A stretch of DNA of 64,000 nt from a virus. The notes beneath the pieces are model-generated. The model made no database searches. It saw nothing but the letters and a program-made list of their open reading frames with translations, and had not been told where the DNA came from. A program made the position numbers and the translations under genes. This document shows, piece by piece, positions 1-64,000 of this stretch; the stretch's first letter is position 1; each line of letters starts with the position of its first letter. Where the stretch lies: IMG/VR virus record IMGVR_UViG_3300045988_105534. One strand, written 5' to 3'.

Positions 1-153
1 ATCAAAACTTAACGACTTTTTGTTTTTTAGGATATTAGATAAATTAGCCGGGGAGATACCAATAGCCGTTGCAAGTTGTTTTTGTGTATAATTCTTTCTT
101 AATTGCAATTCTTTAATGGTTGCGATTAATTGAGTATTATCTATATATATCAT
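1..153 (-). CDS. XRE-family helix-turn-helix transcriptional regulator; N-terminal part only, the gene runs off the window start
   Basis: Minus-strand ATG at 153 preceded by AAGGAAGG. Translation MIYIDNTQLIATIKELQLRKNYTQKQLATAIGISPANLSNILKNKKS shows an HTH_XRE pattern. Confidence 0.7.
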   Translation of the reverse strand, partial: MIYIDNTQLIATIKELQLRKNYTQKQLATAIGISPANLSNILKNKKSLSFD

Positions 154-228
154 ATATGTTTTACCTTCCTTTACTTTTTATATTATTAAGTGTATAAAAA
201 TAATTTTAAAAAAAGATCAAATAAATAC

Positions 229-258
229 TTGACAAATCAAGTAAAAACTTGATATAAT
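229..258 (+). promoter_or_regulatory. Consensus sigma70 promoter P1: TTGACA, 18-nt spacer, extended -10 TGATATAAT
   Basis: TTGACA at 229-234 and TGaTATAAT at 250-258. Spacer contains the palindrome ATCAAGT-N5-ACTTGAT. Confidence 0.7.
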
Positions 259-358
259 AATAACTGTCAAAAGGATACAAGATATAAATCAAGTATCTAA
301 TTGATATTATATCATAATTTGATTTTAAAACAAATCAAAAAATAAATCAAATAAATGC

Positions 359-388
359 TTGACAAATCAAGTAAATACATGATATAAT
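359..388 (+). promoter_or_regulatory. Consensus sigma70 promoter P2, a tandem copy of P1
   Basis: TTGACA at 359-364 and TGaTATAAT at 380-388. About 50 bp is near-identical to the P1 region. Confidence 0.7.
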
Positions 389-1252
389 ATAAACAAGTTA
401 AGAGAGAGACATAAAAAACAAACCACATTGAGTTGTCGGTAGTTTTCAAAAGTCAATCAATTAGCAACAACTTATAAACAGTCTTAAAAAGGAGAGTCAA
501 ACAAAAGTAAATCTTAAAAATTAAAATGGTTGTACATGATGAAATGTACATAAGGATAATGAAAAAGGCTTTCAAATGCTGGTAACATTCAAAAGCCCAT
601 AGATAAGTATAAATTATACTTAGCCCTAAACAATCTAAGTATAACATATCTTAAAAAGTTTTGTCAATTCTGATAAAACAAATTTCATTTTTTGAACGGC
701 AGACAACTAAATAGTTTGTCTTGCATGATGATATATGATAAACCCTAGATAATAGCAAGGTGGTGCTTGCGGGGTTTTGATAAGGCAATAGCCAACGTGG
801 TAAGTAATAGACAAGTGTCAGAGTAGGGAATAAACCGTGACCATAGGGAACACTTGCAAGGAACAACAAACAAAACTTATATATTTATAATATATAAGGG
901 ATAACTTAACAATGAACGGATCTAAACTTAAGGGTGTCAATTTTTGATACTCTGTTTTTTTGTAACAAATTGTAGCAACTCTTTTCTTGCTTTAGAGTAA
1001 AAAAAGCATGGTTGGAACTTAAACCATTTAATGGTTGTTAGTGCTGATTATAGCACCATGGCAAGTATATCATCTAGTAGGATATTTGTCTTTATAACCG
1101 AACGCAAACGGCTTGTACCTTAGTAGTTAGTAGGTTATATACAAATTATATGAACAGTGATCACTGTCTTGCATACCGCTTTAATCGGCATTATAGAACT
1201 ATTAAAAAATCCAGCCTTGAAAGCTGGTCGTAGTGATAGGAGGTAAACAACT

Positions 1253-2709: not shown

Positions 2710-3318
2710 ATGAAAACAAAACAGAACAAAACAATCAAGATCCTATTAGCTGTAGCACTCATGTTTACGGCTTTTTTAATCTTTGGAAATACTGTACACG
2801 CAAAGACAAAAAGAAGCACGTACAGAACGATAAACGGCATTTATAACAGTGACGGCACAATTGACACGGCAGATGGTTATTGCTGGAAAGTTCGCAAGGA
2901 ATCATATGCCTATCCAGGGACTACCGTTGTCACTGTAAAATTTAACACACACGGCACTAGAAACAAGCTTGATGATTCTATTGTAAAGATCACGGCAAAG
3001 AATAAGAATATCCAACTTGTAAACGATTATATACGCAGAAATTATGACTTAAATGCCTATAAGGTAAAGTATATCAGCACTGGAAAACTAACGGATAAAA
3101 TGATCCGTGAACGTGCCACACGACATACAATTTATGTGGAAATTATTAAAAGTGTTTCTGCTGGAGGTAGACATGGAACGTATGGAAAAAACTACTATAT
3201 TGCCTATAACAAACGTGTACGCAAGGGAAAACACATAACAAGCTATTGTGTATGGAATCCTTGCAATAGTTATTGTGATGATGTAGAAGTCGTGGCAGAT
3301 AATGGAAAAATCAGATAA
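2710..3318 (+). CDS. Secreted protein with N-terminal signal peptide (202 aa)
   Basis: MKTKQNKTIKILLAVALMFTAFLIFGNTVHA looks like a signal peptide; AGAAAGAAGG Shine-Dalgarno. Confidence 0.7.
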   Translation: MKTKQNKTIKILLAVALMFTAFLIFGNTVHAKTKRSTYRTINGIYNSDGTIDTADGYCWKVRKESYAYPGTTVVTVKFNTHGTRNKLDDSIVKITAKNKNIQLVNDYIRRNYDLNAYKVKYISTGKLTDKMIRERATRHTIYVEIIKSVSAGGRHGTYGKNYYIAYNKRVRKGKHITSYCVWNPCNSYCDDVEVVADNGKIR

Positions 3319-19731: not shown

Positions 19732-20682
19732 ATGGCAGCAACACAGTTTGAAGTTATTGAAACAGTAAACAATAATAACGCAGAAGAATCTGAAACAAAG
19801 ATTAAAAGACGCAAGGACGGAAGTCCTAAATGGACTCGATCTAACAAACGGAAAGGCGTATCATCTTTAGTGTATCCGATTAAGAACAGAGAAAAATTTG
19901 CAGCCTTTAATGCATATTTTAGAGATCAGATTGATAAATCATATACAGAGTACAAACGATATGTAGCTGCTAGAAATAATCTTTTGGTTGCAGTTGGAAA
20001 TAATACAGCGTATCGTATTTCTGATATTGTTAGACTTAAATGGGGTGATTTATTAGACGATAAGACTCGTAAGCAGGAAAAGAAAACAAAGAAATTCAGA
20101 ACTGTATACTTTAACGATTTGGTAACTGAAGCAGTGGATATTTTCTTTGAAGCTGTTGCAGGAACTAAATATGATGTCAAGATTGATGGCAAAGTGCCAA
20201 TGGATGATTATGTTTTCGGAACATGTAAGTCTGGATCAGGGCATATGACTGAAGCAAATGCTTTGGATTTTGTTAAAAAAGGTGCTAAGGCAGTTGGAAT
20301 TGAGGATAACATTGGTACACATACATTGCGAAAAAACTTTGTATACTGGACACTTGTTGATCATAAGGATGATCAGAATGTATTGTATACACTTATGAGA
20401 TTACTGAATCATAGTAGTCCTGCAATGACGTTTTTATATGCTACAATTACAGAAGAGGAAACACATGTATTGTTCGATGATATTGCTCAGACGTATAAGG
20501 ATATTATCAGCGGAGTATTTAACGGATTAAAGGAAAATGTTATTAATGTGAGTTATGATAGAGTAATAGAGATTATCAAGTGTGCTTATGAGACAGGGAA
20601 AGATGATGCAGATAAAGATGATGGAGTACATGAGGATAATATGCAAGCATTAAAAGAATTACTGGAAGGAGTTATTTTATGA
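19732..20682 (+). CDS. Tyrosine site-specific recombinase (small integrase/Xer-like)
   Basis: Arg box AYRISDIVRLKWGDL; HxxR in GTHTLRKNFVYW; His-Tyr box LLNHSSPAMTFLYAT. Confidence 0.7.
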   Translation: MAATQFEVIETVNNNNAEESETKIKRRKDGSPKWTRSNKRKGVSSLVYPIKNREKFAAFNAYFRDQIDKSYTEYKRYVAARNNLLVAVGNNTAYRISDIVRLKWGDLLDDKTRKQEKKTKKFRTVYFNDLVTEAVDIFFEAVAGTKYDVKIDGKVPMDDYVFGTCKSGSGHMTEANALDFVKKGAKAVGIEDNIGTHTLRKNFVYWTLVDHKDDQNVLYTLMRLLNHSSPAMTFLYATITEEETHVLFDDIAQTYKDIISGVFNGLKENVINVSYDRVIEIIKCAYETGKDDADKDDGVHEDNMQALKELLEGVIL

Positions 20683-21436: not shown

Positions 21437-21757
21437 ATGAAGATAAATACGATTAGACAAAATAAGGAAGAAAAGAAAGCAAACCAGAATCTTATGTGGA
21501 TTTCAGCAGAGATTCCACCGCTAAAACCAGATAATGCATCACGTTATATGAGATATAAAACATATCCTGTTATCGTGGATTACCAATATAATGATGGATG
21601 TGTGGGCGAAGTGCTTGATTTCTGTGACTATGATTTTGAAGAAAAGAAATGGAAACTGGATAATCCGCATAAAGTTAGACAGTATTTCCCACTTCCAAGT
21701 AAGCACAAAGTAAAGTGTTCGAACAAAAAGAGAACACTTGTTCGAAAAATATCTTGA
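21437..21757 (+). CDS. Hypothetical protein (106 aa)
   Basis: TAGGAGAA Shine-Dalgarno. Confidence 0.55.
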   Translation: MKINTIRQNKEEKKANQNLMWISAEIPPLKPDNASRYMRYKTYPVIVDYQYNDGCVGEVLDFCDYDFEEKKWKLDNPHKVRQYFPLPSKHKVKCSNKKRTLVRKIS

Positions 21758-21829
21758 TTTTGTTCTATGGTAGCATTATAATAAGAAATGTAGAGATTCT
21801 TTGTTCACAATAAAAATTAACTTTCTTTC

Positions 21830-21867
21830 TTGCACCTATTGACAGGGTGCAAAAAGTATGGTATATT
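21830..21867 (+). promoter_or_regulatory. Operator-flanked sigma70 promoter (copy 1): TTGCACC-N-TTGACA-GGGTGCAA ... TATATT
   Basis: TTGACA at 21839-44, 17-nt spacer, TATATT at 21862-67. A 7-bp inverted repeat TTGCACC/GGTGCAA brackets the -35. Near-identical to 63789-63826. Confidence 0.6.
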
Positions 21868-21917: not shown

Positions 21918-22367
21918 ATGAACGGATATACTAACAAAGAAAGAAAAGGAAACGATAACAGAAAAAGAAAAGAATATGTATATGGCAAATATCAAAATCC
22001 TCAAGTTTGGGGAATATATTTTGCAGATTTGCCGAAAATTGAAGGTAGTCACATCTTGCATGGGAAAAGACCAGTCATCGTATATTCTAATAATATTTGT
22101 AATAATACGAGCACAGAGATCAACGTGTATCCAATTACAAAAAAATTAAGGAACTGGATACCGACACATGTAACCATTTATCCAAATACCAGTAATGGAT
22201 TAAAAATGGTATCACAGGTGTATTTAGAGCAAGGAAGAACAATTCCAAAGAATAATCTTTTAGAGTATTGGGGAAGAATATCTGATCTATCTTTAATGTT
22301 AAAAATAGGACATGGCATTTTAATACAAAACGGCATGTTATCGTACATGAATGCAATGGCATCCTAG
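21918..22367 (+). CDS. MazF/PemK-like endoribonuclease toxin-fold protein with a basic N-terminal extension
   Basis: GIYFADLPKIEGSHILHGKRPVIVYSN and VYPITKK...TSNGL...LEQGRTI match PemK motifs. Start moved to the ATG with a GAGGGA Shine-Dalgarno, downstream of the promoter. Confidence 0.55.
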   Translation: MNGYTNKERKGNDNRKRKEYVYGKYQNPQVWGIYFADLPKIEGSHILHGKRPVIVYSNNICNNTSTEINVYPITKKLRNWIPTHVTIYPNTSNGLKMVSQVYLEQGRTIPKNNLLEYWGRISDLSLMLKIGHGILIQNGMLSYMNAMAS

Positions 22368-22381
22368 AAATGGAGAATATT

Positions 22382-23398
22382 ATGAATAATAAAGAATTGA
22401 TACAAAATTATATAGATTCTTACGTATCAGAATCACGTCGCCCAACATGGAATTGGTTATTAGATTCTGATATTGCGGACGACAATGAATCTGGGTTAAC
22501 GTATGCACCAGGTACAATCCAAGAGGCTATATTATCAGATACTAGAGGTAAAAAAACCAAAAGTATGAATTCTATTAAAAAAAGATATGACCAGCTTGTT
22601 AAACTATATACTTATGCATATGAACAAAATTACATTAAATATAATCCATTTGTTAATGATAAATTTATAAACTTGCAATTAGCAGTTGATATATATTTTT
22701 CAAATAGAGTTAACGTTAATTATGTTACACCAGATAAAATAAATGCGTTTATTTCGAATCTGATGTCGTGCAATGCATCAGCCGATACCAAATTGAATAC
22801 TAGATTTCACATTGTGAGTTTATATAATGGGATAAATGGAAAGGAGTTAAGAAATCTAAAATTCTCAGATATTAATCAAAATGATTTGACAATTTTTGGG
22901 AAACCAGTCTCCAAAGATTTTATCGAGACATTGAATGAATATAAATTGAAAATGGGAGATACGAATATATATGATGATTTTGTATTAATACCACGAAAAA
23001 AATGTAATAATATAGAAGAATATCAAGCAGAGCAAAAGAGGATATATAATAATGTGCAGTCTCAATTAGAATTAACTGGTAACACTTTATCTTATGAGAA
23101 ATTGACAACCATTGATGTTATTAATTCTGGTTTTATACAATATTTAAAATCTAAAATGGATATCAAGGCAATTGCAGATTTATATTATATTAAATCAAAA
23201 GAAGGAATCGCACGATCTTTAATCGCACGTCAATTTAGTGAAATTGCAATTGAATTTTATTATAATTATTATATATCATATAGATTAAAAAAGAAACAAT
23301 TTAGTGATCGTCAAACTGTAATTGGTAAAACTATTGGTTATCTATATAAAGATGAGGACTATAAGAATTATCGTGTACATCAAATTATGACAGAATAA
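22382..23398 (+). CDS. Hypothetical protein (338 aa)
   Basis: Long ORF with a weak Shine-Dalgarno (GGAGAA); no motif recognised. Confidence 0.5.
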   Translation: MNNKELIQNYIDSYVSESRRPTWNWLLDSDIADDNESGLTYAPGTIQEAILSDTRGKKTKSMNSIKKRYDQLVKLYTYAYEQNYIKYNPFVNDKFINLQLAVDIYFSNRVNVNYVTPDKINAFISNLMSCNASADTKLNTRFHIVSLYNGINGKELRNLKFSDINQNDLTIFGKPVSKDFIETLNEYKLKMGDTNIYDDFVLIPRKKCNNIEEYQAEQKRIYNNVQSQLELTGNTLSYEKLTTIDVINSGFIQYLKSKMDIKAIADLYYIKSKEGIARSLIARQFSEIAIEFYYNYYISYRLKKKQFSDRQTVIGKTIGYLYKDEDYKNYRVHQIMTE

Positions 23399-33625: not shown

Positions 33626-33763
33626 GGAAACATAGCTCAGTTGGTAGAGCAGGCAATACATAAACATTCATTTTTCTACCTCCATATAAGTATTTTTATT
33701 TATTTACATTTAATTTTCATCACATATAAATTGCCGACACAGGTTCGATTCCTGTTGTTTCCA
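33626..33763 (+). tRNA. tRNA gene (anticodon loop reads UACAUAA, so CAU-like for Met or Ile2) interrupted by a ~67-nt AT-rich insertion next to the anticodon loop
   Basis: Acceptor GGAAACA/TGTTTCC is perfect. D-arm GCTC-AGTTGGTA-GAGC. Anticodon stem GGCAA/TTGCC. T-arm ACAGG-TTCGATT-CCTGT. Discriminator A. 74 nt lie between the anticodon stem halves. Confidence 0.6.
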
Positions 33764-33803: not shown

Positions 33804-34007
33804 TTAATCGTTTGGTATGACCTCGATAACATCTTCAACTTTGCAATCAAGATATAAGCAAATTTTGTCAATGTTTTCGAGACTGATATACTGATTCTTT
33901 GCCATCTTGGCAATTGTACCAGACCCCATATTTAAAGCGGTTCGTAAATCAGATTTTGTCATACCCTTTTTCGCTAAAGTTACGAAAAGCGGTTTATAAC
34001 TTATCAT
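33804..34007 (-). CDS. XRE-family HTH transcriptional regulator (67 aa)
   Basis: MISYKPLFVTLAKKGMTKSDLRTALNMGSGTIAKMAKNQYISLENIDKICLYLDCKVEDV. GGAGGT Shine-Dalgarno 7 nt before the ATG at 34007. The track ORF was extended upstream. Confidence 0.8.
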   Translation of the reverse strand: MISYKPLFVTLAKKGMTKSDLRTALNMGSGTIAKMAKNQYISLENIDKICLYLDCKVEDVIEVIPND

Positions 34008-34028
34008 ATGATATACCTCCACATCTAT

Positions 34029-34057
34029 ATTGTAACATATTATATACAGGATGTAAA
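34029..34057 (-). promoter_or_regulatory. Leftward promoter for the XRE regulator (TTTACA-17-TACAAT on the minus strand)
   Basis: Read from the reverse complement of 34029-34057. Confidence 0.5.
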
Positions 34058-34088
34058 ATAAAATATTCAATAAGTTGAAGATTTTGTA

Positions 34089-34117
34089 TTGACACTATGT
34101 GCAATAAGTGGTATATT
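34089..34117 (+). promoter_or_regulatory. Rightward consensus promoter TTGACA-17-TATATT, divergent from the XRE gene
   Basis: TTGACA at 34089-94 and TATATT at 34112-17. Confidence 0.65.
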
Positions 34118-34173
34118 ATATTCAACAAATGAAAGATAAACTTCAAGAAAATGAAATATGAAGGAGTGAGAAA

Positions 34174-34581
34174 ATGTCAAATAAAATTTACAGATATTAT
34201 CAACCAAACGATAAAGATACAAAAGACAATCATTCAGATTGCGTGATCAGAGCATTAACAAAAGTGCTTGATAAAGAATGGTTAACAACATTTGATGATT
34301 TGTTACCATACGCAAGGGATATGCAGTGTATGCCATCAGAGCGAAAATGTTACGAAGAATATTTATTCGATAATGGGTTTGCTTATCAAGGTATTAGCAA
34401 CCGAAAAGGATCTAAACGACCAACAGTTGAAAGTTTTGCAAAAGATCATAAACAAGGCAATTACTTGGTAAATGTTGCGAATCATGTAGTTGCAATTTCA
34501 GACGGTTGTTATTACGACACATGGGATTCTGGAGATTGTTGCTTGTATGGATATTACTATAAGGAAGAAGGAGAGAAATAA
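34174..34581 (+). CDS. Hypothetical protein with conserved Cys/His pair (possible papain-like amidase or peptidase fold)
   Basis: NHSDCVIRAL ... NHVVAISDGCYYDTWDSG; GAAGGAGTGAG Shine-Dalgarno. Confidence 0.55.
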   Translation: MSNKIYRYYQPNDKDTKDNHSDCVIRALTKVLDKEWLTTFDDLLPYARDMQCMPSERKCYEEYLFDNGFAYQGISNRKGSKRPTVESFAKDHKQGNYLVNVANHVVAISDGCYYDTWDSGDCCLYGYYYKEEGEK

Positions 34582-34884: not shown

Positions 34885-35277
34885 ATGAATTTAGAAGAAA
34901 CTATCAAATGCGCAAATGATATGACAACAAAGAAATACACAGAAGCCATGTTGTGTCATGCGAATCCAGACGATGAAGAACTTGATGGATTGATTGACTG
35001 TGCCTTAAATCATGAGCAACTTGCGAAGTGGCTGGGAGAATTGAAAGAGTTAAAAGAATATAAAGAAAAGTATAGATGGCATGACTTAAGAAAGAATCCT
35101 GATGATCTGCCAGAAGATATTAAGTACGTTTGGGTTTTTATAAAAGGTGAATGCACTCATAGGTCATGGCACGATTCTCATGGATGGAGAAGGCGTAACA
35201 GTAACATTTTATACTATAACGACGAAAGTGTTTTGGCGTGGAGAGAGATTGAAGAGTTTAAAAGTGAGGGGAAATAA
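34885..35277 (+). CDS. Hypothetical protein (130 aa)
   Basis: GAGAGGAGAG Shine-Dalgarno. Confidence 0.6.
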   Translation: MNLEETIKCANDMTTKKYTEAMLCHANPDDEELDGLIDCALNHEQLAKWLGELKELKEYKEKYRWHDLRKNPDDLPEDIKYVWVFIKGECTHRSWHDSHGWRRRNSNILYYNDESVLAWREIEEFKSEGK

Positions 35278-35790
35278 ATGAGTACAACAAAAACAATTGA
35301 TATTTCAGTGCTGCCAGAGGCAGAACAGGATCTAATAAAAGCATTATTTGATAAATGTTGTGAAAGAGCGAAACCAAAAGAAAAAACTAATTCAGGGTCT
35401 AAAGTTTGGAAACCAAAATACGGTGAAAGATATCATTACATTGATGGTAGCGGATCTATTTATAGTGCAATATGGTTTAATAGCATTGTCGATAACGGTA
35501 GATGGGTATTAGGCAACGTATTTAAAACACAAGAAGAAGCAGTATTTGCAAGAAAGAAAAGAAAAGTAGAAGTTGAACTTGAGCGGTATGCAAAGGAACA
35601 CAATGGCACAGAATTTGCCAATCGTTGTTATTGTATTCGATGTGAAGAAGACGGAAAAAGACTTCTTTGCGATACATGGGCTACAACAAAAATACAGGGT
35701 ACAGTTATGTTTACATCAAAAGATGTTTTAGTTGATGCAATTGAAGCAATCGGAAGAGACAGAATCATTAAATACATCTTTGGAGCATAA
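35278..35790 (+). CDS. Hypothetical protein, tandem paralog A (170 aa)
   Basis: Shares KTIDIS..L.EA.Q.L.K.LF...CER......NS ... LGNVFKT.....FA ... RIIKYIF with the next gene. Confidence 0.6.
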   Translation: MSTTKTIDISVLPEAEQDLIKALFDKCCERAKPKEKTNSGSKVWKPKYGERYHYIDGSGSIYSAIWFNSIVDNGRWVLGNVFKTQEEAVFARKKRKVEVELERYAKEHNGTEFANRCYCIRCEEDGKRLLCDTWATTKIQGTVMFTSKDVLVDAIEAIGRDRIIKYIFGA

Positions 35791-35806
35791 AGTGAGGTGA
35801 AAGAAA

Positions 35807-36340
35807 ATGGGTACAGAAAAGACAATTGATATTTCAAAATTATCTGAAGCACAACAGAATTTATTCAAATCATTATTTGAGCAATTTTGTGAAAGATCAG
35901 AAAAAGAAGAAAAAGCTAATTCATGTGGTTTAAAGAATGGGGATACGTATTATTTCATCACTGATGATGGGCATATCTGTATGGCAAAATGGCAAGGTAG
36001 AGCATCAGATTTTAGAAGATTAGCTTTAGGTAATGTATTTAAGACTGAAAAGGATACAGAGTTTGCTATTGAAAAGCAGAAGGTTAGGGTTGAATTGCAA
36101 ATATATGCTGATGAACATAATGATCCTGATCAAGAAGAATGGGATGGAGCGAATTTTCATTATTATATTGGATATGATGTGACTGAGGATGATTTGGCAA
36201 AAATCCCTGCCGTACAACTTAGACGCCTAAATGAGGTATATTTTTCTTCTAAAGAAATCGCTGAGGATGCCGCCAACAAGGTTGGAGCAAAACGCATCAT
36301 AAAATATCTATTTGATGTTGATTGTGGGGTGGATGAATGA
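35807..36340 (+). CDS. Hypothetical protein, tandem paralog B (177 aa)
   Basis: Paralog of 35278-35790. Confidence 0.6.
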   Translation: MGTEKTIDISKLSEAQQNLFKSLFEQFCERSEKEEKANSCGLKNGDTYYFITDDGHICMAKWQGRASDFRRLALGNVFKTEKDTEFAIEKQKVRVELQIYADEHNDPDQEEWDGANFHYYIGYDVTEDDLAKIPAVQLRRLNEVYFSSKEIAEDAANKVGAKRIIKYLFDVDCGVDE

Positions 36341-41539: not shown

Positions 41540-42301
41540 ATGGATAAAGGTATAACTATAGAATTTTATAGGAATTATGAATTTGATATTGTGCGAGGTA
41601 TTTGTCTTGGAGATGAATCAACAAAAATTGACTTCCCTATAAATGATGAAACTTTAAACATAATGGCTTCAGATTTTCAATATAATGAACAAACTATACA
41701 GTTAGATTATGGTTATAAATATAGAAGAAAAAATTATGTAAAAATCGACGAAATGCAAGCTACATCAACAAATATATTGTCATGTAACGGAATTATATTA
41801 AAAGATGGCATTAAGTTTTTTATTGGTGAAGCAGTAATGGATGTTTCTAGTGGAAAAGAAATATATAAATTATATGACAAAGATGTATATAAAGATAAAA
41901 CTTATTATAATCAAACGAAAGAAATGGTATTTGAATGGGCAAAGAAAGATATATATAAAGTTGTAATGATGATGGACAGGATTGCAGGAGAGGCAATTAA
42001 TCGAGCGATGACCGAATATGCTAATCACGGATCTTTGTATCGTATGTTCTTTCCACCTAATATTCCTGAGCCACAATATAGTTATTCTATGCATGATTTA
42101 TACTTGATGACTGATCCTAATATAATGAAGGGTGACATTCGTAGGCGTATATGCTGCAAGGTACCTAATTTTGATAGGAGGGTGAGGAAATGGGATTATA
42201 GTGCAGATCGTTATGAACATTACTTAGTGTTGGATTACAGTAAGGAAATCAATAAATTCATTAAAGAACAGGAGGATAAAAAATGTGAAGAAATTAAATG
42301 A
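41540..42301 (+). CDS. Hypothetical protein (253 aa)
   Basis: TAGGAGTG Shine-Dalgarno. Confidence 0.6.
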   Translation: MDKGITIEFYRNYEFDIVRGICLGDESTKIDFPINDETLNIMASDFQYNEQTIQLDYGYKYRRKNYVKIDEMQATSTNILSCNGIILKDGIKFFIGEAVMDVSSGKEIYKLYDKDVYKDKTYYNQTKEMVFEWAKKDIYKVVMMMDRIAGEAINRAMTEYANHGSLYRMFFPPNIPEPQYSYSMHDLYLMTDPNIMKGDIRRRICCKVPNFDRRVRKWDYSADRYEHYLVLDYSKEINKFIKEQEDKKCEEIK

Positions 42302-42818
42302 TGAACAGCGAAAGCTGATTGAAGATAACTATTCTTTGATTTGGCATTTGCATGAAAAGTATTTTACAAAATTTACAGATTTTGATACATATATGGATCT
42401 TGGGCGTATGGCAATTTGTAAAGCAGCATTAAAATGGGACGAGTCTAAAGGAACTTTTGGTACATATCTCTTCTGGGTATTACGTTCAGAAGTGAATCAA
42501 TATTATACAAAATGGCACAGACCAACAGAAAAAATGAATAGGAATGCTGAATCGTTAGATACGCCATTGGCAGGATATGAACCAGAAGATGATATTACAA
42601 TCGGAACAACACTGATGAGTGGGGATAACGTAGAAGATGAGGTACTTACAAAGGTACATTTTCAAAATGAGTTTGATAAATTGGCACCGAGAAATAAAAA
42701 GATTATTGTTTTAAAGCAGAAAGGTTTAACACAAAGACAAATTGCAAGTCAGCTTGGAATCACTCATCAGTGGGTTAGTCAAAATATTGTACAGTTTAAG
42801 AAAGCATTATGTGGATAA
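42285..42818 (+). CDS. Sigma-70 family RNA polymerase sigma factor (phage-encoded), paralog 1
   Basis: Region 2-like FGTYLFWVLRSEV and region 4 HTH LTQRQIASQLGITHQWVSQNI. GTG start with AGGAGGA Shine-Dalgarno. N-terminus parallels 48538. Confidence 0.8.
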   Translation: MKKLNDEQRKLIEDNYSLIWHLHEKYFTKFTDFDTYMDLGRMAICKAALKWDESKGTFGTYLFWVLRSEVNQYYTKWHRPTEKMNRNAESLDTPLAGYEPEDDITIGTTLMSGDNVEDEVLTKVHFQNEFDKLAPRNKKIIVLKQKGLTQRQIASQLGITHQWVSQNIVQFKKALCG

Positions 42819-48537: not shown

Positions 48538-49080
48538 ATGTCGTTGAAATTAAATGACGAACAGAGAAAATTAGTAGAACAAAATCATAATTTGATTTAC
48601 TCTGCTATGACAAAATGCGGTATCCGCAGACAAGATTTTGATGACTATTATGGATTCGCTGCTATTGGGTTGTGTAAGGCAGCAATTGATTATGATAAAA
48701 CACGATCTAAATCATTTTCGACATATGCGTATTTATGTATACAAAATGAAATAACGGTATATAACAAATACAGATTTCGGCAGAGAAGAAAGGGTGATAT
48801 GAATACTATTTCATATAATCATATGTTAGATGATTGGGATGAAGACAAAAATGAAAATTCATTTCTTTTAAAGGATGAAGAAAATTTTGAAAAAAATATT
48901 ATTTTTAAGTTGAATTTTCAAGATAAATGTTACACACTAAATAATAAGGACAGAATGATTGTTGATTTAAAATCAAAAGGTTATACATATCAAGAAATTG
49001 CAAAAATGTTTGGTACATCATTTCAAGCGATACAACAAAAGATTAAAAAAATGCGATCAACAACATTTTCCAGATTATAA
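48538..49080 (+). CDS. Sigma-70 family RNA polymerase sigma factor (phage-encoded), paralog 2
   Basis: MSLKLNDEQRKLVEQNHNLIY; region 2-like FSTYAYLCIQNEI; C-terminal HTH YTYQEIAKMFGTSFQAIQQKI. Confidence 0.8.
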   Translation: MSLKLNDEQRKLVEQNHNLIYSAMTKCGIRRQDFDDYYGFAAIGLCKAAIDYDKTRSKSFSTYAYLCIQNEITVYNKYRFRQRRKGDMNTISYNHMLDDWDEDKNENSFLLKDEENFEKNIIFKLNFQDKCYTLNNKDRMIVDLKSKGYTYQEIAKMFGTSFQAIQQKIKKMRSTTFSRL

Positions 49081-54968: not shown

Positions 54969-56562
54969 CATTTTGAACGATTGCAGAGGACTTTTTGAAG
55001 ATGAGGTATTTGAAATTATCATGCAGGAGCGTGGTATTGACGATCCAGAACATTTTCTAAATCCTACGGAAGATGATTTACTTTCTCTTGATGACTTAAA
55101 AAATATTGATAAAGCATACAGACTCGTGATGAGTGCGGTGAATGAAGATAAACGTATTGCAGTACATTTTGATACAGATACTGACGGCATCACATCTGGT
55201 GCCGTTATGACACGATATTTAAAAAACATGACAGAAAATCCAGTAGATGTATACATTAACCGAGGCAAACAGCATGGATTAGCAAATCAGGACATTGCTA
55301 AGTTTTATGGGTATGATTTACTGATTGTCGTTGATAGTTTGGATAAAGACGAGACTCAGTATAAGGATTTAAAAGAAACAGGAGTTGATGTGATTGTGTT
55401 AGACCACCATGCCATCGATCCAGATGTTCCTTATGACAACTATTGCACATTAGTTTCTTCTCAGAGAGAATATGAAAATCCACAGTTATCTGGTGCAGGT
55501 GTTGTCTGGAAGTTTTGCAAGTATATTGATGAGCAGAATGGTACAGATTATGCAGATAATTTGGTCGATCTAGCAGGCGTTGGGCTGATTGCAGATATGA
55601 TGGATATGAGAGTAATGGAGAATCGTTACATTGTATCCGAAGCTTTGAAAGAAATTAGAAATCCTGCGATTAAGAAGATTATTGGTGGATTTGAATTCAA
55701 CAGCACAGCAGTTGCTTTTAGTATTGCACCGTTGGTTAATGCTGCAAACAGAATGGATCAGAATGAAATTGCTCTAAATGCTTTCCTTGAAGATGACAAT
55801 AAAAAGTTACGAGGATATATTAAACAATTAAAGCAATGCAAAGAAGACCAAAATGAAGAGGTCGCACAGCTGATGCCAATGATTGCGGAACAGTGTGAAG
55901 CTCAGAGTGATAAAAAGATGATCACAACTTTTATCGACACTGATTATGGTATTTCTGGGTTAATTGGAAACAAATTGCTTGAAAAATACCAGAAGCCGAT
56001 TCTTGTGCTAAAGAAAAATGAAGATACATATGCAGGATCTATGAGAGCAGTTGGTGTAAAAGACTTCCGACAGATGTGTAATAACAGTCAGTTGGCTGAA
56101 GCAAATGGACATGAACTTGCCAGTGGTATTGAAATTCCTAGAAAGAACTTTGCTGAGTTCACCTCTTATATAGAAGAAACTCTTCCAGATAAGCCAGAAG
56201 ATACAACAGTTGATGTCGATATTATGCTTGATATTTCAGACATCACAAGAAAAATGGTTGACATGATTAAGAAAATTGATCGTATTTCTGGGCAAGGATT
56301 TAAACCTGTAAGAGTTTATATTGAAGAGATTGACGACTATGACATTGGTCAGATGAGCAATTATAAACATCTTGTCCTGAAACCATGTAACAATGATAAA
56401 TTGTGGATCATTAAATGGAACTATGATGGATCGTTTGAGGATATGGAAGACCATTCTATGATGAATGATGAGTTTTGTGCAGTTACTACACTTGATTGCG
56501 GATTCTTTGGAAGAAAGTTTGTGCTGAAAGCTGTGTGTGATTCACTTGAAGAGGTGGGATGA
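54943..56562 (+). CDS. RecJ-like DHH-family single-stranded DNA exonuclease (start uncertain; alternative ATG at 55021)
   Basis: AVHFDTDTDGITSGAV and VLDHHAID are DHH motifs; RecJ-like linker; 513-539 aa. Confidence 0.7.
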   Translation: MKTSKKKYNILNDCRGLFEDEVFEIIMQERGIDDPEHFLNPTEDDLLSLDDLKNIDKAYRLVMSAVNEDKRIAVHFDTDTDGITSGAVMTRYLKNMTENPVDVYINRGKQHGLANQDIAKFYGYDLLIVVDSLDKDETQYKDLKETGVDVIVLDHHAIDPDVPYDNYCTLVSSQREYENPQLSGAGVVWKFCKYIDEQNGTDYADNLVDLAGVGLIADMMDMRVMENRYIVSEALKEIRNPAIKKIIGGFEFNSTAVAFSIAPLVNAANRMDQNEIALNAFLEDDNKKLRGYIKQLKQCKEDQNEEVAQLMPMIAEQCEAQSDKKMITTFIDTDYGISGLIGNKLLEKYQKPILVLKKNEDTYAGSMRAVGVKDFRQMCNNSQLAEANGHELASGIEIPRKNFAEFTSYIEETLPDKPEDTTVDVDIMLDISDITRKMVDMIKKIDRISGQGFKPVRVYIEEIDDYDIGQMSNYKHLVLKPCNNDKLWIIKWNYDGSFEDMEDHSMMNDEFCAVTTLDCGFFGRKFVLKAVCDSLEEVG

Positions 56563-57824
56563 TTATGGCAGGAAAAGAAGTATTTTGTTCAGTCTGCGGT
56601 TTATCATCTACTTTGGACGGACATTTTTGGAAAGAAAAGAAGTTGTGCAACAGACACAATATGCAGTTAGAAAAACATGGAAAACTGTTAGATAAAGATA
56701 TAGTGATCCCTAAAAAGAGACATAGATGGACTCCAGAAGAAGAAGTCAGATTAGAAGAGTTGTATAAACAAGGAGTTTCTTTTGAAAAAATTAGTAAACA
56801 AATGAATCTATCCGTGGCAGCCATAGCGGCTCGAAGTCGTCATTTGAATCTTGGCAATAAGTATATGAGGTCTAATAATCCTAATTTTAAAGCCACATAT
56901 CAGGATTATGATTGGTGTTATGAAAGATATGTTGTTAAGGGAATGACTCATCAAGAAATGGCAGATGAATGTGGTGTCTCGTTAAGAGTTATTCAGAAAT
57001 GGTGTTCTGAAGTTCATAAATTAAATTGTTGGACTTTCAAAAACAATAAGACATTAACCGATAAACAGTATCAAATTATTTTATTTGGCACATTAGGGGA
57101 TGGGCATATTGATAAAAGAGAGACGCAACCTTTGTATATTGAATGTCATTCTATAGCAGAAAAGGATTACGTGTTTTGGAAATATGAAGAATTAAAAGAT
57201 TTATGTAACTCTGAGCCAAAGTATTATGAAGGTGGCTATAAAGATTTTGGTTCTGGTACAAAGTATTGGTGTAAACCACATTACAGATTTGAGACAAGAA
57301 TTATTAATCAATTGAAGGACATTCGAGACATGCCAAGAATCAATAAGATTTGGCAATTGAATGAATTTGGATTATCTCTTCATTGCTTAGACGATGGATG
57401 CAGAGGTAAATCAGCGTGGGAATTATGTTTGGCAGAATATACTCAGCAAGAAATTGATTTATATATCAAGCTGTGTAAAAAGAGATTTGGGTTATATGCT
57501 AAACAGCAGACAGATAAAAGATATATAAGATTTGATTCAGATTCAAGTAGAATTATTGATCAAATTATTTTAAACAATATTCCTAATTCGCTTGACATTA
57601 TCAAAAAGAAGATATTAGAAAACGATAAAATTTCTAAAAAAGTAAGATACATTTATGTTGTCATGCAGAACGGAGAACAGATTGGTTTATCTACATATTG
57701 TAGATCTCATGGTATTCCATATGAAAAGACAAGAAAATATGTCATTGAGCACAATATCTCTCGAATTCAAGAAGCTGATCTACTAAATAGATTAAAAGCT
57801 GGAGGATTAATGAATGCGGTATAA
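56559..57824 (+). CDS. Free-standing LAGLIDADG-family homing endonuclease with N-terminal zinc-ribbon/HTH region
   Basis: Two LAGLIDADG-like motifs, ILFGTLGDGHI and LHCLDDGCRGKS; N-terminal CSVCG...CNRH and an HTH-like RWTPEEEVRLEELYKQGVSFEKIS. Confidence 0.6.
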   Translation: MIMAGKEVFCSVCGLSSTLDGHFWKEKKLCNRHNMQLEKHGKLLDKDIVIPKKRHRWTPEEEVRLEELYKQGVSFEKISKQMNLSVAAIAARSRHLNLGNKYMRSNNPNFKATYQDYDWCYERYVVKGMTHQEMADECGVSLRVIQKWCSEVHKLNCWTFKNNKTLTDKQYQIILFGTLGDGHIDKRETQPLYIECHSIAEKDYVFWKYEELKDLCNSEPKYYEGGYKDFGSGTKYWCKPHYRFETRIINQLKDIRDMPRINKIWQLNEFGLSLHCLDDGCRGKSAWELCLAEYTQQEIDLYIKLCKKRFGLYAKQQTDKRYIRFDSDSSRIIDQIILNNIPNSLDIIKKKILENDKISKKVRYIYVVMQNGEQIGLSTYCRSHGIPYEKTRKYVIEHNISRIQEADLLNRLKAGGLMNAV

Positions 57825-61526: not shown

Positions 61527-63779
61527 ATGGAGAGTCAGACATGCGGAAAGGTATGCGAGTTTGAAATGATTCCTACATATCAGATATTTTATGATGAAGA
61601 ATCAATGTTTGGTATCTATGCGTTTTGTACAAAAGACCAGATACCACAATTCAGTCCATACAATGATAATAAATTTGATGACTCAGGAGATAAAGAATAT
61701 GTTGCAAGTAAACTTGTTGGAGAAGTTCAACAGTTATATATTGGGACAAAGTATAATGTAAAAGCGACATGTATTTATTCTCAAAAATATCATGAATATC
61801 AATATAAACCGATTTCGGTTGTTGCAGACGTTCCAAAAACACAGACTGATCAGTTAATGTTTTTAAAAACACAAGCGAAAGAATCAATTGCTGAAAGCTT
61901 GCTTGCTGAATATCCAAATATTATTGAGGATGTTATGGCAGGAAAATGTAAGACGATTGACACATCTATGATTAAAGGACTTGGCAACAAGACATGGGCG
62001 AAGCTCAGAGAGAAGATCATTAATAATTATGTGATTTCTGAGGTTGTAGTTATGCTACAGCCTCATGGCATTACTTTTAATATGATTAAGAAATTGGTAG
62101 AAGCTGAGCCAGATCCAGAAAAGTTAAAGTATAAAATCAACACAAATCCTTACATTTTAACTAAGATCAGAGGTCTTGGATTTAAGAAAGTTGATGATAT
62201 TGCTTTAAAGATCCGTCCAGAGTTGAGAGATTCTAAGTATCGACTTGATTATTTTATGACGTATTATTTAACGAATCTTGGCGAAAGTGACGGACATACA
62301 TATATGGCGATTGCCACATTGCGATCAGAAGTTAGTACAACAGTTGGAGAGTGTCTGCATATATTTGACGATTATGTTGAAAATGATTTTCCTCCAGACA
62401 TCTATGTTAGTGGCGAACTAATTGGTTTGAAAAAGTACCATGACACAGAAATGAATATACTGGCATTGTTGCAAGAACGCAGAGATACTAATTCTACCAA
62501 GAAGAAAGAGATAATCACTGTAAACGAAATTGGACAAGTTATTGCTGAAGTTGAAAAAGAAGAAGGATTTACTTTTAGTGAAGAACAAAACAAAGGTATT
62601 TATACTGCATTACAAACAAATGTTGTCTTGATCAGTGGTGAAGCTGGAACTGGTAAAACTACTTTATTAAAGCCGATCATCAGATGTTATAAGAAAAGAA
62701 ATTACAGCATTGCTGCATGTGCGTTATCTGCGAAAGCAGCACAGAGAATCCAAGAGGCAACAGGATTAGAAGCAAAAACTATTCATAGATTGCTTGAGGC
62801 ACAAGGCGTAGATTCATTTATGCACGATGCCAACAATCCGTTGCCAATAGATGTAGTTCTTTTAGATGAGGCAAGTATGGTTAATGCAGGATTGTTTTAT
62901 CAGTTGCTTTTAGCAATTCGTCCAGGTACAAAAATTATTATTAGCGGAGATCATATGCAGTTACCACCAATTGGATATGGTAACATTTTCTCTGATCTAC
63001 TCAAAATGGATGAGTTAGATTCAGTGCAATTAACGAAGCCAATGAGACAAGCAGAAAAGTCTGGTATTCTTAGTGATGCTAGAAAAGTGCGTAGAGCAAT
63101 TTCTCCAATTGAGGATTTTAGTGCTAAACAAGTTCATGGAGAGCTACATGATATGTTTTACATTTTCAGAAATAATCGTGAGAATATTTTTAATTTGGTT
63201 GTAAAGCAGTTCATGACGTGTGTTAAACAAGACGGTATGGATAATGTGGTTGTAATCTCTCCTCGTAAGTCAGGTTGCATAAACTCTACAGAAGAACTTA
63301 ATGTAGCAATTCAGAAAGAATTGTATAAAAATAAATCCAATGCAAGGTTTGTTACATATGGCAAAACAAAGAAGTTTTATGTGGGAGATAAAGTGCTTCA
63401 AACCAGTAATGACTATGAAAGAAACACATTTAATGGAGATATTGGATACATTACTGGCATTAATTATGATAAGAAAGTTGTTCATGCCATGATGAATCCA
63501 GACATGGATAAGAAGATGATTGAATATTCTTTTGCTCAGTTAGGACAACTTCAATTGGCATATGCATTAACAACGCATAAGCTTCAAGGATCGGCTGCTC
63601 AAACTGTAATTGGCATCATTGACAACACACATTACAAATTGCTTGATAACTGTATGCTATATACAATGTTAACACGAGCTAAGAAAAGATTTGCGCTCCT
63701 TGCAGAGCCAGAAGCGTTTAAGAGATGTATCGTGACAAATCATAATAAGAGGCGCACATGGTTAAGCTTAAAAAATTAA
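61527..63779 (+). CDS. recD: RecD-like (RecD2/TraA family) SF1 ATP-dependent DNA helicase
   Basis: Walker A VVLISGEAGTGKTT; Walker B VVLLDEASMV; C-terminal YALTTHKLQGSAAQTVI motif; 750 aa. Confidence 0.8.
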   Translation: MESQTCGKVCEFEMIPTYQIFYDEESMFGIYAFCTKDQIPQFSPYNDNKFDDSGDKEYVASKLVGEVQQLYIGTKYNVKATCIYSQKYHEYQYKPISVVADVPKTQTDQLMFLKTQAKESIAESLLAEYPNIIEDVMAGKCKTIDTSMIKGLGNKTWAKLREKIINNYVISEVVVMLQPHGITFNMIKKLVEAEPDPEKLKYKINTNPYILTKIRGLGFKKVDDIALKIRPELRDSKYRLDYFMTYYLTNLGESDGHTYMAIATLRSEVSTTVGECLHIFDDYVENDFPPDIYVSGELIGLKKYHDTEMNILALLQERRDTNSTKKKEIITVNEIGQVIAEVEKEEGFTFSEEQNKGIYTALQTNVVLISGEAGTGKTTLLKPIIRCYKKRNYSIAACALSAKAAQRIQEATGLEAKTIHRLLEAQGVDSFMHDANNPLPIDVVLLDEASMVNAGLFYQLLLAIRPGTKIIISGDHMQLPPIGYGNIFSDLLKMDELDSVQLTKPMRQAEKSGILSDARKVRRAISPIEDFSAKQVHGELHDMFYIFRNNRENIFNLVVKQFMTCVKQDGMDNVVVISPRKSGCINSTEELNVAIQKELYKNKSNARFVTYGKTKKFYVGDKVLQTSNDYERNTFNGDIGYITGINYDKKVVHAMMNPDMDKKMIEYSFAQLGQLQLAYALTTHKLQGSAAQTVIGIIDNTHYKLLDNCMLYTMLTRAKKRFALLAEPEAFKRCIVTNHNKRRTWLSLKN

Positions 63780-63788
63780 CTTTATTCT

Positions 63789-63826
63789 TTGCACCTATTG
63801 ACAGGGTGCAAGAAGTATGGTAAAAT
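63789..63826 (+). promoter_or_regulatory. Operator-flanked sigma70 promoter (copy 2), near-identical to 21830-21867
   Basis: TTGCACC-tat-TTGACA-GGGTGCAA-gaagtatgg-TAAAAT; 17-nt spacer. Confidence 0.6.
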
Positions 63827-63856: not shown

Positions 63857-64000
63857 ATGAGAAAAAGATTTTTAATGAAAGTTGTTTCATTTAGCTTCTT
63901 AGCAATGTGTTCGGGCTTTATGACTCACACAGTTAAAGCAGAGGAGCGACCCTCGGTAGAGACTTCAACCTTATCAACAGAGACAACTGTTGCAGAAAAT
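63857..64000 (+). CDS. Secreted or cell-surface protein, N-terminal part (runs off window)
   Basis: AAGGAAAGGAGA Shine-Dalgarno; MRKRFLMKVVSFSFLAMCSGFMTHTVKA is a signal peptide, followed by a Ser/Thr-rich region. Confidence 0.6.
   Translation, partial: MRKRFLMKVVSFSFLAMCSGFMTHTVKAEERPSVETSTLSTETTVAEN

Follow-up and report, generated by a model that had tools for sequence, protein, structure and literature searches.

A promoter with a -35-centred dyad recurs three times in the genomes of large uncultured phages: a putative operator set and its recombinase-fold candidate reader

Why would a phage place the same promoter, bracketed by the same inverted repeat, in front of genes 42 kb apart, and which protein would read it? 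This question is raised by a stretch of 64,000 nucleotides (nt) from the IMG/VR virus record IMGVR_UViG_3300045988_105534, which was analysed over its full length and is called the window hereafter. One copy of the promoter, copy A, precedes a MazF/PemK-like gene (mazF-like), and the other, copy B, precedes the gene of a protein with a signal peptide. Both downstream genes are as the original prediction, made from the letters of the window alone, had named them, and in relatives the second one encodes a 3D-domain protein. Judged from sequence, these are probably host sigma-A promoters with a dyad operator centred on the -35 hexamer, three per genome, repressed by one type-specific phage protein. 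This protein is most likely the product of the open reading frame (ORF) that follows the mazF-like gene, here named ORF342.

The 23-mer TTGCACCTATTGACAGGGTGCAA occurs in exactly two places of the window, at 21830-21852 (copy A) and 63789-63811 (copy B), both on the + strand, and the chance expectation is 0 matches in 100 shuffles. In the whole window, no further site was found with up to 3 mismatches allowed, and a pattern of the arms only, with up to 2 mismatches, retrieved nothing beyond copies A and B. The anatomy had been predicted exactly: each copy has a TTGACA, a 17-nt spacer and a -10 hexamer, TATATT in copy A and TAAAAT in copy B, and in both the arms TTGCACC and GGTGCAA bracket the -35. 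The pair of about 35 bp of identity, which had also been described, is real as a repeat, but it is longer, with 52 nt at 92% identity (21812-21863 versus 63771-63822, direct repeat D6), it includes the A/T-rich upstream stretch AAAAATTAACTTT, and it represents two of three copies per genome. An extended -10 is indicated by TGG at 21859-21861 (copy A) and 63818-63820 (copy B). Copy A matches 11 of the 12 consensus hexamer positions and copy B 10, and at each copy a ribosome-binding site and a start codon follow 31-51 nt downstream of the -10. On our own promoter scale, a score of at least 12 is reached by just five + strand sites of the 64 kb, copies A and B among them. By these features, copies A and B are near-consensus sigma-70/sigma-A-type promoters with an extended -10.

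A scan for further copies, which had been proposed with the original prediction, was empty within the window, and it revealed a third copy in relatives, just left of it. The exact motif was found in 93 IMG/VR stretches, all of them from closely related contigs of ~80-170 kb, and in three contexts only: the sites of copies A and B (sites A and B), and a site C on the opposite strand, ~2.9 kb left of window position 1 in contig 133811. Wherever a relative's locus extends far enough, site C is there (40 of 40), and the relatives carrying this third copy are IMG/VR phages of ~150-170 kb. Downstream of it lie a 130-amino-acid (aa) ORF and then the gene of a 287-aa protein with replication-initiator-like PHROG matches. 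About 2.8 kb of ORF-poor DNA and an XRE gene, the 5' part of which is window 1-153, separate site C from the window start. Sites C and A are ~25 kb apart, and A and B ~41-47 kb (several contigs checked). The arm pair was not found in any fourth context in 3.3 Mb of fetched (redundant) family sequence.

Except for an 88.8-kb contig (L450; JAGTTT010000010.1 in assembly GCA_018223505.1) of the isolate Anaerostipes sp. Marseille-Q3525, which carries a related element, the relatives come from metagenomes. This isolate contig suggests the host genus, and the host is probably a gut Anaerostipes (Lachnospiraceae), as far as sequence relationship can tell. The nearest cultured relatives are the Clostridioides phages phiCD211/phiCDIF1296T, Clostridium botulinum c-st, and Geobacillus E3, with ~42% amino-acid identity in the DNA polymerase III (Pol III) alpha subunit. 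Near-identity searches with 20-26 kb against deposited phages and plasmids gave no close DNA match. Two pattern searches were discarded: TTGCACCNNTTGACANGGTGCAA, scanned against one genome per species, gave a single match in Microvirga that was judged to be chance, and the degenerate pattern TATTGACAG-N8-AAGTATGNTA retrieved mostly unrelated consensus promoters of other phages.

The module exists in six sequence types. In type 1 (n=49 distinct variants from the three sites), the arm core TGCAC...GTGCA is nearly invariant, with rare changes in the outermost pair or, in single cases, the innermost base, while the upstream flanks and the -10 are variable. The loop occurs as two haplotypes, TATTGACAG and CGTTGACAA, both of which are found at sites A, B and C, and the site-A copy of one relative (L187) bears the flank of site C. 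Therefore, short patches are exchanged among the copies. It had been suggested that the repeat could mediate recombination or module exchange, and this exchange of short patches is visible, whereas no deletion or inversion between copies was seen in 42 contigs. Type 2 at site A, TTTAAATGCTaTTGACAAGCATATAAA, belongs to relatives with a 70%-identical MazF-like protein, and the same module stands at their sites B and C. Types 3-6 were reached via ORF342 homologues. At site A, type 3 is TATTGACACTgTTGACAAGTGGCAATA, with the matching module at sites B and C, and type 4 is TTAATTGGCACTgTTGACAAGTGGCAATTAA, a dyad of 31 bp, with the matching module at site B of the same contig; types 5 (TTGAAACTaTTGACAAGTATCAA, cut by the contig end) and 6 (TTATCTGCTaTTGACTAGAAGATAA) were found at site A only. 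Examples are the contigs 3300045988_131791 for type 1 and 3300045988_132849 for type 2, and scaffold_4 of ERZ28620591 (204,764 bp) for type 3.

Within a genome, the arms are shared by A, B and C in types 1-3, and by A and B in type 4. Site A was typed as type 1 in 50 loci and as type 2 in 5, and site B as type 1 in 49 and as type 2 in 6, the sixth being a short contig that holds site B only. All 46 contigs typed at both sites are concordant, 41 of them with type 1 and 5 with type 2.

All six types are dyadic about the same base, the G of TTGACA, with a core of 7 bp and arms of 7-12 bp. Copy A has 9 of 12 symmetric pairs (window-wide null P(n>=9)=0.001 per position). Every complete module copy has 8-11 of 12 (null P(n>=8)=0.005 per window position), the best copy of each of the five complete types has 9-11 of the 12 symmetric positions complementary, and the truncated type 5 has 7 of 8. 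By comparison, among the 91 TTGAC[AT] sites in the window, only copies A and B reach at least 8 symmetric pairs. In a gap-free alignment of 13 representative modules, 87% of the cells are paired, whereas shuffled alignments give 65% and registers slid by 1-3 columns give 40-46%. Compensatory changes have altered nine of the twelve arm pairs on both sides, and the covariation score of 0.614 (0.244 shuffled) was reached by none of 500 shuffles. The dyad statistics and the covariation indicate that the symmetry itself is under selection. The inverted repeat around the -35 is thus very probably an operator for a protein. This was already the original proposal, which now gains support from the covariation, the symmetry about one base in six types, and the sharing of arms within genomes.

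Type-2 loci were compared in sliding windows with the nearest type-1 sequence, and the survey of type association covered window 7.3-51.5 kb, ~58.5-64 kb and a few kb beyond, and ~1.5 kb on each side of site C. At site B, only ~100-200 nt holding the module diverged in type 2, with 65% identity to the window versus 93-99% in the flanks, and the swap is bounded by flanks that are at least 97% identical between type 2 and type 1. Likewise, only ~150 nt differ at site C. At site A, the type-specific block comprises the module, the mazF-like gene and ORF342 (70, 71 and 66% nucleotide identity), in contrast to 90-96% for the genes on either side. The MazF-like protein has 68-72% amino-acid identity between type 1 and the other types, and its allele co-varies with the operator type.

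The identity matrix of ORF342 mirrors that of the operator arms. ORF342 is 85% identical between types 3 and 4, which have 19 of 24 arm positions in common, and 73% between types 2 and 6 (18 of 24). Type 1 has 66-68% identity with types 3 and 4 (15 and 13 of 24, respectively), and 56-57% with types 2 and 6 (10 of 24 each). A segment consistently diverged in the five type-2 genomes was not found in the 21 kb of window 30.6-51.5 kb, which hold one XRE gene (33804-34010) and both sigma-factor genes of the window, and the integrase gene at 19732-20682 is not strongly type-linked. Towards the left end, an anchor protein (2710-3315) retrieved no type-2 genome, and for window 0-7 kb the comparison by type covers only the XRE gene of the window start, via the isolate contig. 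The RecD-like helicase upstream of site B has two alleles (~100% and ~75% amino-acid identity over the C-terminal 300 residues; L238-L290), each of which occurs with either type, so recombination occurs close to module B.

What kind of protein is ORF342? Its ribosome-binding site, GGAG at 22372-22375, lies 5 nt past the stop codon of the mazF-like gene, and its start is most likely at 22382. It matches the integrase family PHROG 1 (E 3.6e-10), and in Pfam it has only a sub-threshold SAM-like match; the integrase domain PF00589 was not found in it at E<=0.01. Against all PDB sequences (including 8a0a and 9rd5), phmmer returned nothing at E<=1 and a profile search nothing at E<=10, and hhalign found no relation to the neighbouring bona fide integrase. 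Its family is tiny: the search of 1.84 billion proteins yielded only two more full-length members. A first AlphaFold2 model from 8 sequences was poor and was rejected (predicted local distance difference test, pLDDT, 57; best Foldseek match E 0.014). With two distant homologues added, the pLDDT rose to 79, and ORF342 is predicted by this model to have a tyrosine-recombinase fold with a core-binding and a catalytic-like domain. Compared by eye and not mapped on a structure, the family has N, S or D at the position expected for the first catalytic Arg (LYNG-I-N/S/D), and [I/L]NSGF at the position of the HxxR motif. K174 and several Tyr residues are invariant.

The promoter anatomy, the three copies, the covariation of the dyad, the concordance of the sites, the co-variation of the mazF-like/ORF342 cassette with type, and the predicted fold lead us to infer that a protein binds the module, that this protein is ORF342, that it represses, and that the MazF-like protein may have a part in it. 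Host RNA polymerase would fire the three near-consensus promoters, and one type-specific phage protein would read all three operators. This reader, most likely ORF342, would sit on both arms and occlude the -35, with the dyad centred at about -33, possibly as a dimer, given the dyad, and possibly acting together with the MazF-like protein. At site A, it would repress the mazF-like gene and ORF342, its own operon, and would therefore be autoregulated. At site C, repression would act leftward on the small ORF and the replication-initiator-like gene. At site B, it would act on the secreted 3D-domain protein, a DNA ligase, and further DNA-metabolism genes.

Parts of this arrangement are familiar from other phages. 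In P1, one repressor, C1, controls unlinked operons across a large plasmid-prophage through more than ten asymmetric 17-mer operators overlapping sigma-70-type promoters, and C1 is not recombinase-like. The dispersed operators overlapping sigma-70-type promoters and the one proposed repressor are similar here, but the operators are three dyads and the candidate is recombinase-like. In the lambdoid immunity groups imm-lambda, imm434, and imm21, the repressor allele and the operators change together, as the allele of the candidate reader and all operators do in our mosaic, near-identical genomes. The lambdoid operators, however, lie within ~2.5 kb of the repressor gene, whereas here the distances to the candidate gene are ~25 kb and 42-47 kb, and the swaps involved small patches. 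As in MazEF, PemIK and Kis-Kid, a MazF-family gene stands behind a palindrome-bearing promoter; here, by contrast, there is no upstream antitoxin, the partner is a downstream 338-aa protein of recombinase fold, and the operator is reused at two other operons. Finally, inverted arms around a central 6-8 bp are the layout of loxP, dif and lambda COC', and the core of 7 bp with arms of 7-12 bp resembles it. Here, though, the central region is the -35 hexamer, no rearrangement was seen in 42 contigs, and the candidate has no catalytic-domain match. Among the boxes of host regulators, those of CIRCE/HrcA, Rex and LexA, and others, were considered; the arm spacing does not fit CIRCE.

Integrase-fold proteins have been recruited as master repressors in SPbeta-like prophages. 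MrpR (YopR) of SPbeta and SroF of phi3T, which no longer have the catalytic Arg and His, recognise a repeated element (SPBRE) in about ten promoter regions, where they bind as monomers to an asymmetric A/T-rich box of 15-26 bp (26 bp for SroF) (PMC10516654; bioRxiv 10.1101/2025.11.27.690993). The antirepressor with which SroF specifically pairs is under LexA control and co-evolves with it, and the SroF operon encodes proteins that act on the host MazEF (PMC10516654; bioRxiv 10.1101/2025.11.27.690993). Here as well, a repeated element is found in several promoter regions (three) across the phage genome. The residue pattern of ORF342, compared by eye, may resemble V/S, N254, K169 and Y304 of MrpR. 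As a possible parallel to the LexA-controlled partner of SroF, a LexA-box-like GAAC-N4-GTTC motif is conserved upstream of site A, and the MazF-like protein co-varies with ORF342. The differences are three sites instead of about ten, a phage-borne MazF homologue as partner and not a small Sar antirepressor, phiCD211 and c-st and not SPbeta as the nearest cultured phages, and a host among the gut Lachnospiraceae.

Several points weigh against ORF342 as the reader. It has no detectable sequence similarity to MrpR or SroF, and the dyads of 23-31 bp are unlike the asymmetric boxes of these monomers; as dyads, they suggest a dimer instead. Because the family is tiny, the structure model was built on 10 sequences, and the apparent loss of catalytic residues is deduced from the absent Pfam match and the motif comparison by eye. 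The survey of type association leaves ~60% of the ~160-kb genome outside, where another type-linked gene could lie. Since both cassette genes, mazF-like and ORF342, are direct neighbours of copy A, hitch-hiking could account for part of their linkage, and the short-patch gene conversion observed among the copies could contribute to the concordance. With these reservations, we propose, as a tentative extension that is possible without being the likelier outcome, that a catalytically dead, recombinase-fold ORF342 binds as a dimer to a recombinase-core-like inverted repeat built around the -35. Together with its co-evolving MazF-like partner (co-repressor, antirepressor or checked toxin), it would form a portable cassette with at least six mutually insulated types, controlling replication-initiator, toxin and DNA-metabolism operons up to 47 kb apart. 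In that case, either a recombinase would have been recruited independently as a master regulator in these phages, or their regulator would be very distantly related to that of SPbeta.

Other explanations of the module deserve the same scrutiny. The original prediction had named the two XRE regulators of the window (33804-34010 and 1-153, both on the - strand) as binders. Both are helix-turn-helix (HTH), repressor-like proteins, each of their genes adjoins a strong divergent promoter, and the promoter at 34089 contains GTGCAA, like the right arm. Neither regulator, however, tracks the operator type, and it is the mazF-like gene and ORF342 that co-vary instead. In 4 of the 5 type-2 genomes, the 21-kb region that holds the XRE gene of 33804-34010 has at least 97% identity with one or another type-1 genome, and in the fifth (L410) the stretch of this gene is diverged or missing, which amounts to no consistent type-linked difference. 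The XRE protein of the window start is identical at 76 of 78 positions in the isolate contig L450, which was typed at site C only and has a type-2 operator. Moreover, the XRE genes each have their own, different palindrome nearby (ACTTGA-N4-TCAAGT at 229 and 359), and we consider a reading by either regulator quite unlikely. The promoters could also lack a dedicated reader, as paralogous strong promoters kept alike by gene conversion, with an incidental palindrome. The exchange of loop haplotypes and the L187 flank fit this view, but conversion leaves the dyad symmetry with compensatory changes in six types unexplained. A conversion from type 1 to type 2 would also have to start from at most ~10 nt of common flank, yet all 46 contigs are concordant, and the narrow swap at site B, between nearly identical flanks, speaks against it as well. 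This explanation keeps a small probability, slightly above that of the XRE regulators.

A third group of explanations takes the inverted repeat as a structure or as a site for DNA transactions. As a hairpin or cruciform, it could be an RNA 3'-end or processing signal in read-through transcripts, or a structure of single-stranded DNA. A stem would give the same covariation, and folded as DNA, 5 of 6 tested modules do better than shuffled ones (dG -3.8 to -10.2 kcal/mol). A hairpin, though, needs no common arms at three sites of one genome, yet the arms are common. The type-2 stem at site B reaches only -2.3 kcal/mol (z -1.15), which is marginal, the 7-9 nt of the loop would be the -35 hexamer, and transcription is predicted to start downstream of the element. 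As no T-run follows the stem, where AAAAGTATGG or GAAGTATGG stands, the element is not an intrinsic terminator; a terminator scan, limited to 15-30 kb, did not list copy A. A structural role is thus very unlikely. Least probable of all, an active site-specific recombinase (ORF342 or the integrase at 19732-20682) would use the dyads as its core sites for inversion, excision or the resolution of dimers. In layout they do match a tyrosine-recombinase core site, ORF342 has the predicted fold, and a bona fide integrase gene lies 1.1 kb upstream. Nevertheless, all 42 contigs that have both a marker homologous to 2710-3315 (between C and A) and the mazF-like gene show the same relative orientation, and the order of A and B is constant, with a spacing of ~41-47 kb where checked; no inversion or deletion polymorphism is therefore seen. 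The replication genes would be excised if the direct copies A and B recombined, ORF342 has no PF00589 match, and the integrase is not strongly type-linked. As for partition, coliphage N15 has dispersed centromere sites overlapping promoters, and c-st and the phiCD211-like phages, among the closest cultured relatives here, are plasmid-prophages. The dyads might likewise be centromere sites and their types partition-incompatibility groups. Several co-diversifying palindromic sites fit partition specificity, and the scan of one representative genome per species gave no match apart from the chance one. On the other hand, a Pfam scan of ~50 window ORFs detected no ParA, ParB, ParM or TubZ-like domain, the genes linked to type are of the mazF-like and integrase-fold kinds and not partition genes, and the exact centring on the -35 points to transcriptional control. 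We give the centromere explanation the same slight chance as gene conversion. Lastly, the operator could serve only a toxin-antitoxin pair of reverse order, with the MazF-like protein as toxin, ORF342 as antitoxin and autorepressor, and copies B and C as by-products. Type II toxin-antitoxin operons are autoregulated at promoter palindromes (PMC4803016, PMC3879964), and the two genes are tightly coupled, co-vary, and have no antitoxin gene upstream. Copies B and C, however, are conserved in every genome and switch type with A, which implies that they are used, and we found no precedent in the literature for a 338-aa antitoxin of recombinase fold. This restricted role is as improbable as the structural one.

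Table 1. Features of the window around the two promoter-operator modules (strand "." for the dyads)
Feature	Position	Strand	Remarks
Promoter-operator module, copy A	21812..21863	+	A/T-rich upstream part, dyad, -35, spacer; repeat D6; same position in 50 type-1 relatives
Dyad, copy A	21830..21852	.	Arms TTGCACC 21830-21836 and GGTGCAA 21846-21852; 9-nt core with the -35; centre G21841
Core promoter A	21839..21867	+	TTGACA 21839-21844, 17-nt spacer, TG 21859-21860, TATATT 21862-21867
MazF/PemK-like gene	21918..22367	+	149 aa; basic N-terminal extension of ~30 aa; first gene of the copy-A operon
ORF342	22382..23398	+	338 aa from ATG 22382; predicted tyrosine-recombinase fold; candidate type-specific repressor
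GAAC-N4-GTTC, LexA/Cheo-box-like motif	21732-21743	+	Upstream of copy A
Second promoter-like site, TTGATT-17-TATAAT	21754-21782	+	Would read through copy A; 10 nt after the GAAC-N4-GTTC motif
Promoter-operator module, copy B	63771..63822	+	Upstream part overlaps the end of the RecD-like helicase gene; in 49 type-1 relatives
Dyad, copy B	63789..63811	.	Arms 63789-63795 and 63805-63811; centre G63800
Core promoter B	63798..63826	+	-35 63798-63803, 17-nt spacer, TG 63818-63819, TAAAAT 63821-63826
RecD-like helicase gene	61527-63779	+	Last codons and stop (63777-63779) inside the upstream part of module B
Signal-peptide 3D-domain protein gene, start	63857..64000	+	Cut by the window end; PF06725 (3D) on homologues

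The genes around the modules (Table 1) were assigned as follows. The MazF/PemK-family gene, 51 nt from copy A, matches PF02452 (E 1.7e-15) and phrog_1936, and its product matches 4hke and MazF chains in the PDB (E 3e-10 to 2e-8). No small antitoxin gene of the MazE/PemI type was found directly upstream of it with Pfam and PHROG. The ORF at 21437-21757, upstream of copy A, has no Pfam or PHROG match, and two promoter-like sites lie between it and the mazF-like gene. The integrase gene at 19732-20682 matches PF00589 (E 1.8e-13) and lies 1.1 kb upstream of copy A. In all six operator types, the arms GAAC and GTTC of the motif upstream of site A are kept and the centre is variable; together with the second promoter, this sequence motif hints at a possible SOS input. 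After site B, relatives encode the 3D-domain protein of 212 aa, and then an NAD-dependent ligase, a methyltransferase and a SNF2-type helicase.

The window as a whole has 33% G+C and nearly all of its genes on the + strand. Its replication and repair genes encode Pol III alpha, a sliding-clamp-like protein, a DnaB-like helicase, DHH/RecJ-like proteins and an ERCC4-type nuclease, and Bro-N/ANT proteins are also encoded. Two paralogous genes of the sigma-70 family, with regions 2 and 4 (42285-42818 and 48538-49080), have a 5' DNA repeat, D9, in common, and their products presumably serve as middle or late sigma factors. Between the DHH/RecJ-like and Pol III alpha genes, and overlapping both with its ends, stands a LAGLIDADG homing-endonuclease-like gene with HTH motifs (56559-57824). 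A tRNA-like gene at 33626-33763 (+) matches the Rfam tRNA model with 46.4 bits; model positions 1-71 extend over 138 nt, which implies an insertion of ~67 nt, and ARAGORN called no tRNA anywhere in the window. Two neighbouring ORFs of 170 and 177 aa, both lacking a Pfam match, have a direct repeat of 119 nt with 76% identity at their starts (35276-35394 versus 35805-35923), which indicates a tandem gene duplication. In the region matching window 8-14 kb, relatives carry extra toxin-antitoxin pairs (L439 807-1316, L441 1031-1677 and 3732-4241; Phd/YoeB, and RelE with an HTH_3 partner), and therefore this region collects addiction or defence modules.

Both XRE genes have promoter regions of their own. 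Twin consensus promoters at window 197-264 and 327-394 (+), TTGACA-18-TATAAT with TG, diverge from the 78-aa XRE gene at 1-153 (-). The palindrome ACTTGA-CAAA-TCAAGT stands just after or over their -35, with extra half-sites, and the arrangement resembles a classical immunity switch, separate from the modules. After the twin promoters, ~850 nt (window 400-1250) hold no credible ORF and may be an unannotated non-coding RNA or a long leader; Rfam gave nothing there at gathering score nor at E<0.1. On the other side of this XRE gene, towards site C, a relative (L337 2350-5130) has 2.8 kb of strand-skewed DNA that is poor in ORFs and contains repeats of 245 and 488 nt; this region adjoins the replication-initiator-like gene and may be an origin. 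No half-site iterons were found in the ORF-poor 2.8 kb beside site C. The second divergent promoter region, at 34010-34173, separates the 68-aa XRE gene (33804-34010, -) from an operon that starts at 34174. Its + strand promoter at 34089, TTGACA-17-TATATT with TG, resembles the module superficially, having GTGCAA and AAGT..GGTATATT in common with it. It was considered as a diverged fourth copy and rejected, as GTGCAA is not conserved in relatives.

Integrase-fold master repressors have so far been described, between 2023 and 2025, in Bacillus SPbeta-like phages only. If our interpretation is true, they would also occur in large phages of an abundant, butyrate-producing gut genus, with a different geometry, a dyad centred on the -35. 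The six operator types, each with its own protein allele, would then be a data set on how recombinase folds read DNA and how their specificity shifts. The concordant swap of small patches at three operators up to 47 kb apart would be an example of epistatic selection in mosaic phage genomes. The three promoters would mark the points at which this uncultured phage family depends on host RNA polymerase for its control, and at least one isolate, Anaerostipes sp. Marseille-Q3525, carries a related element.

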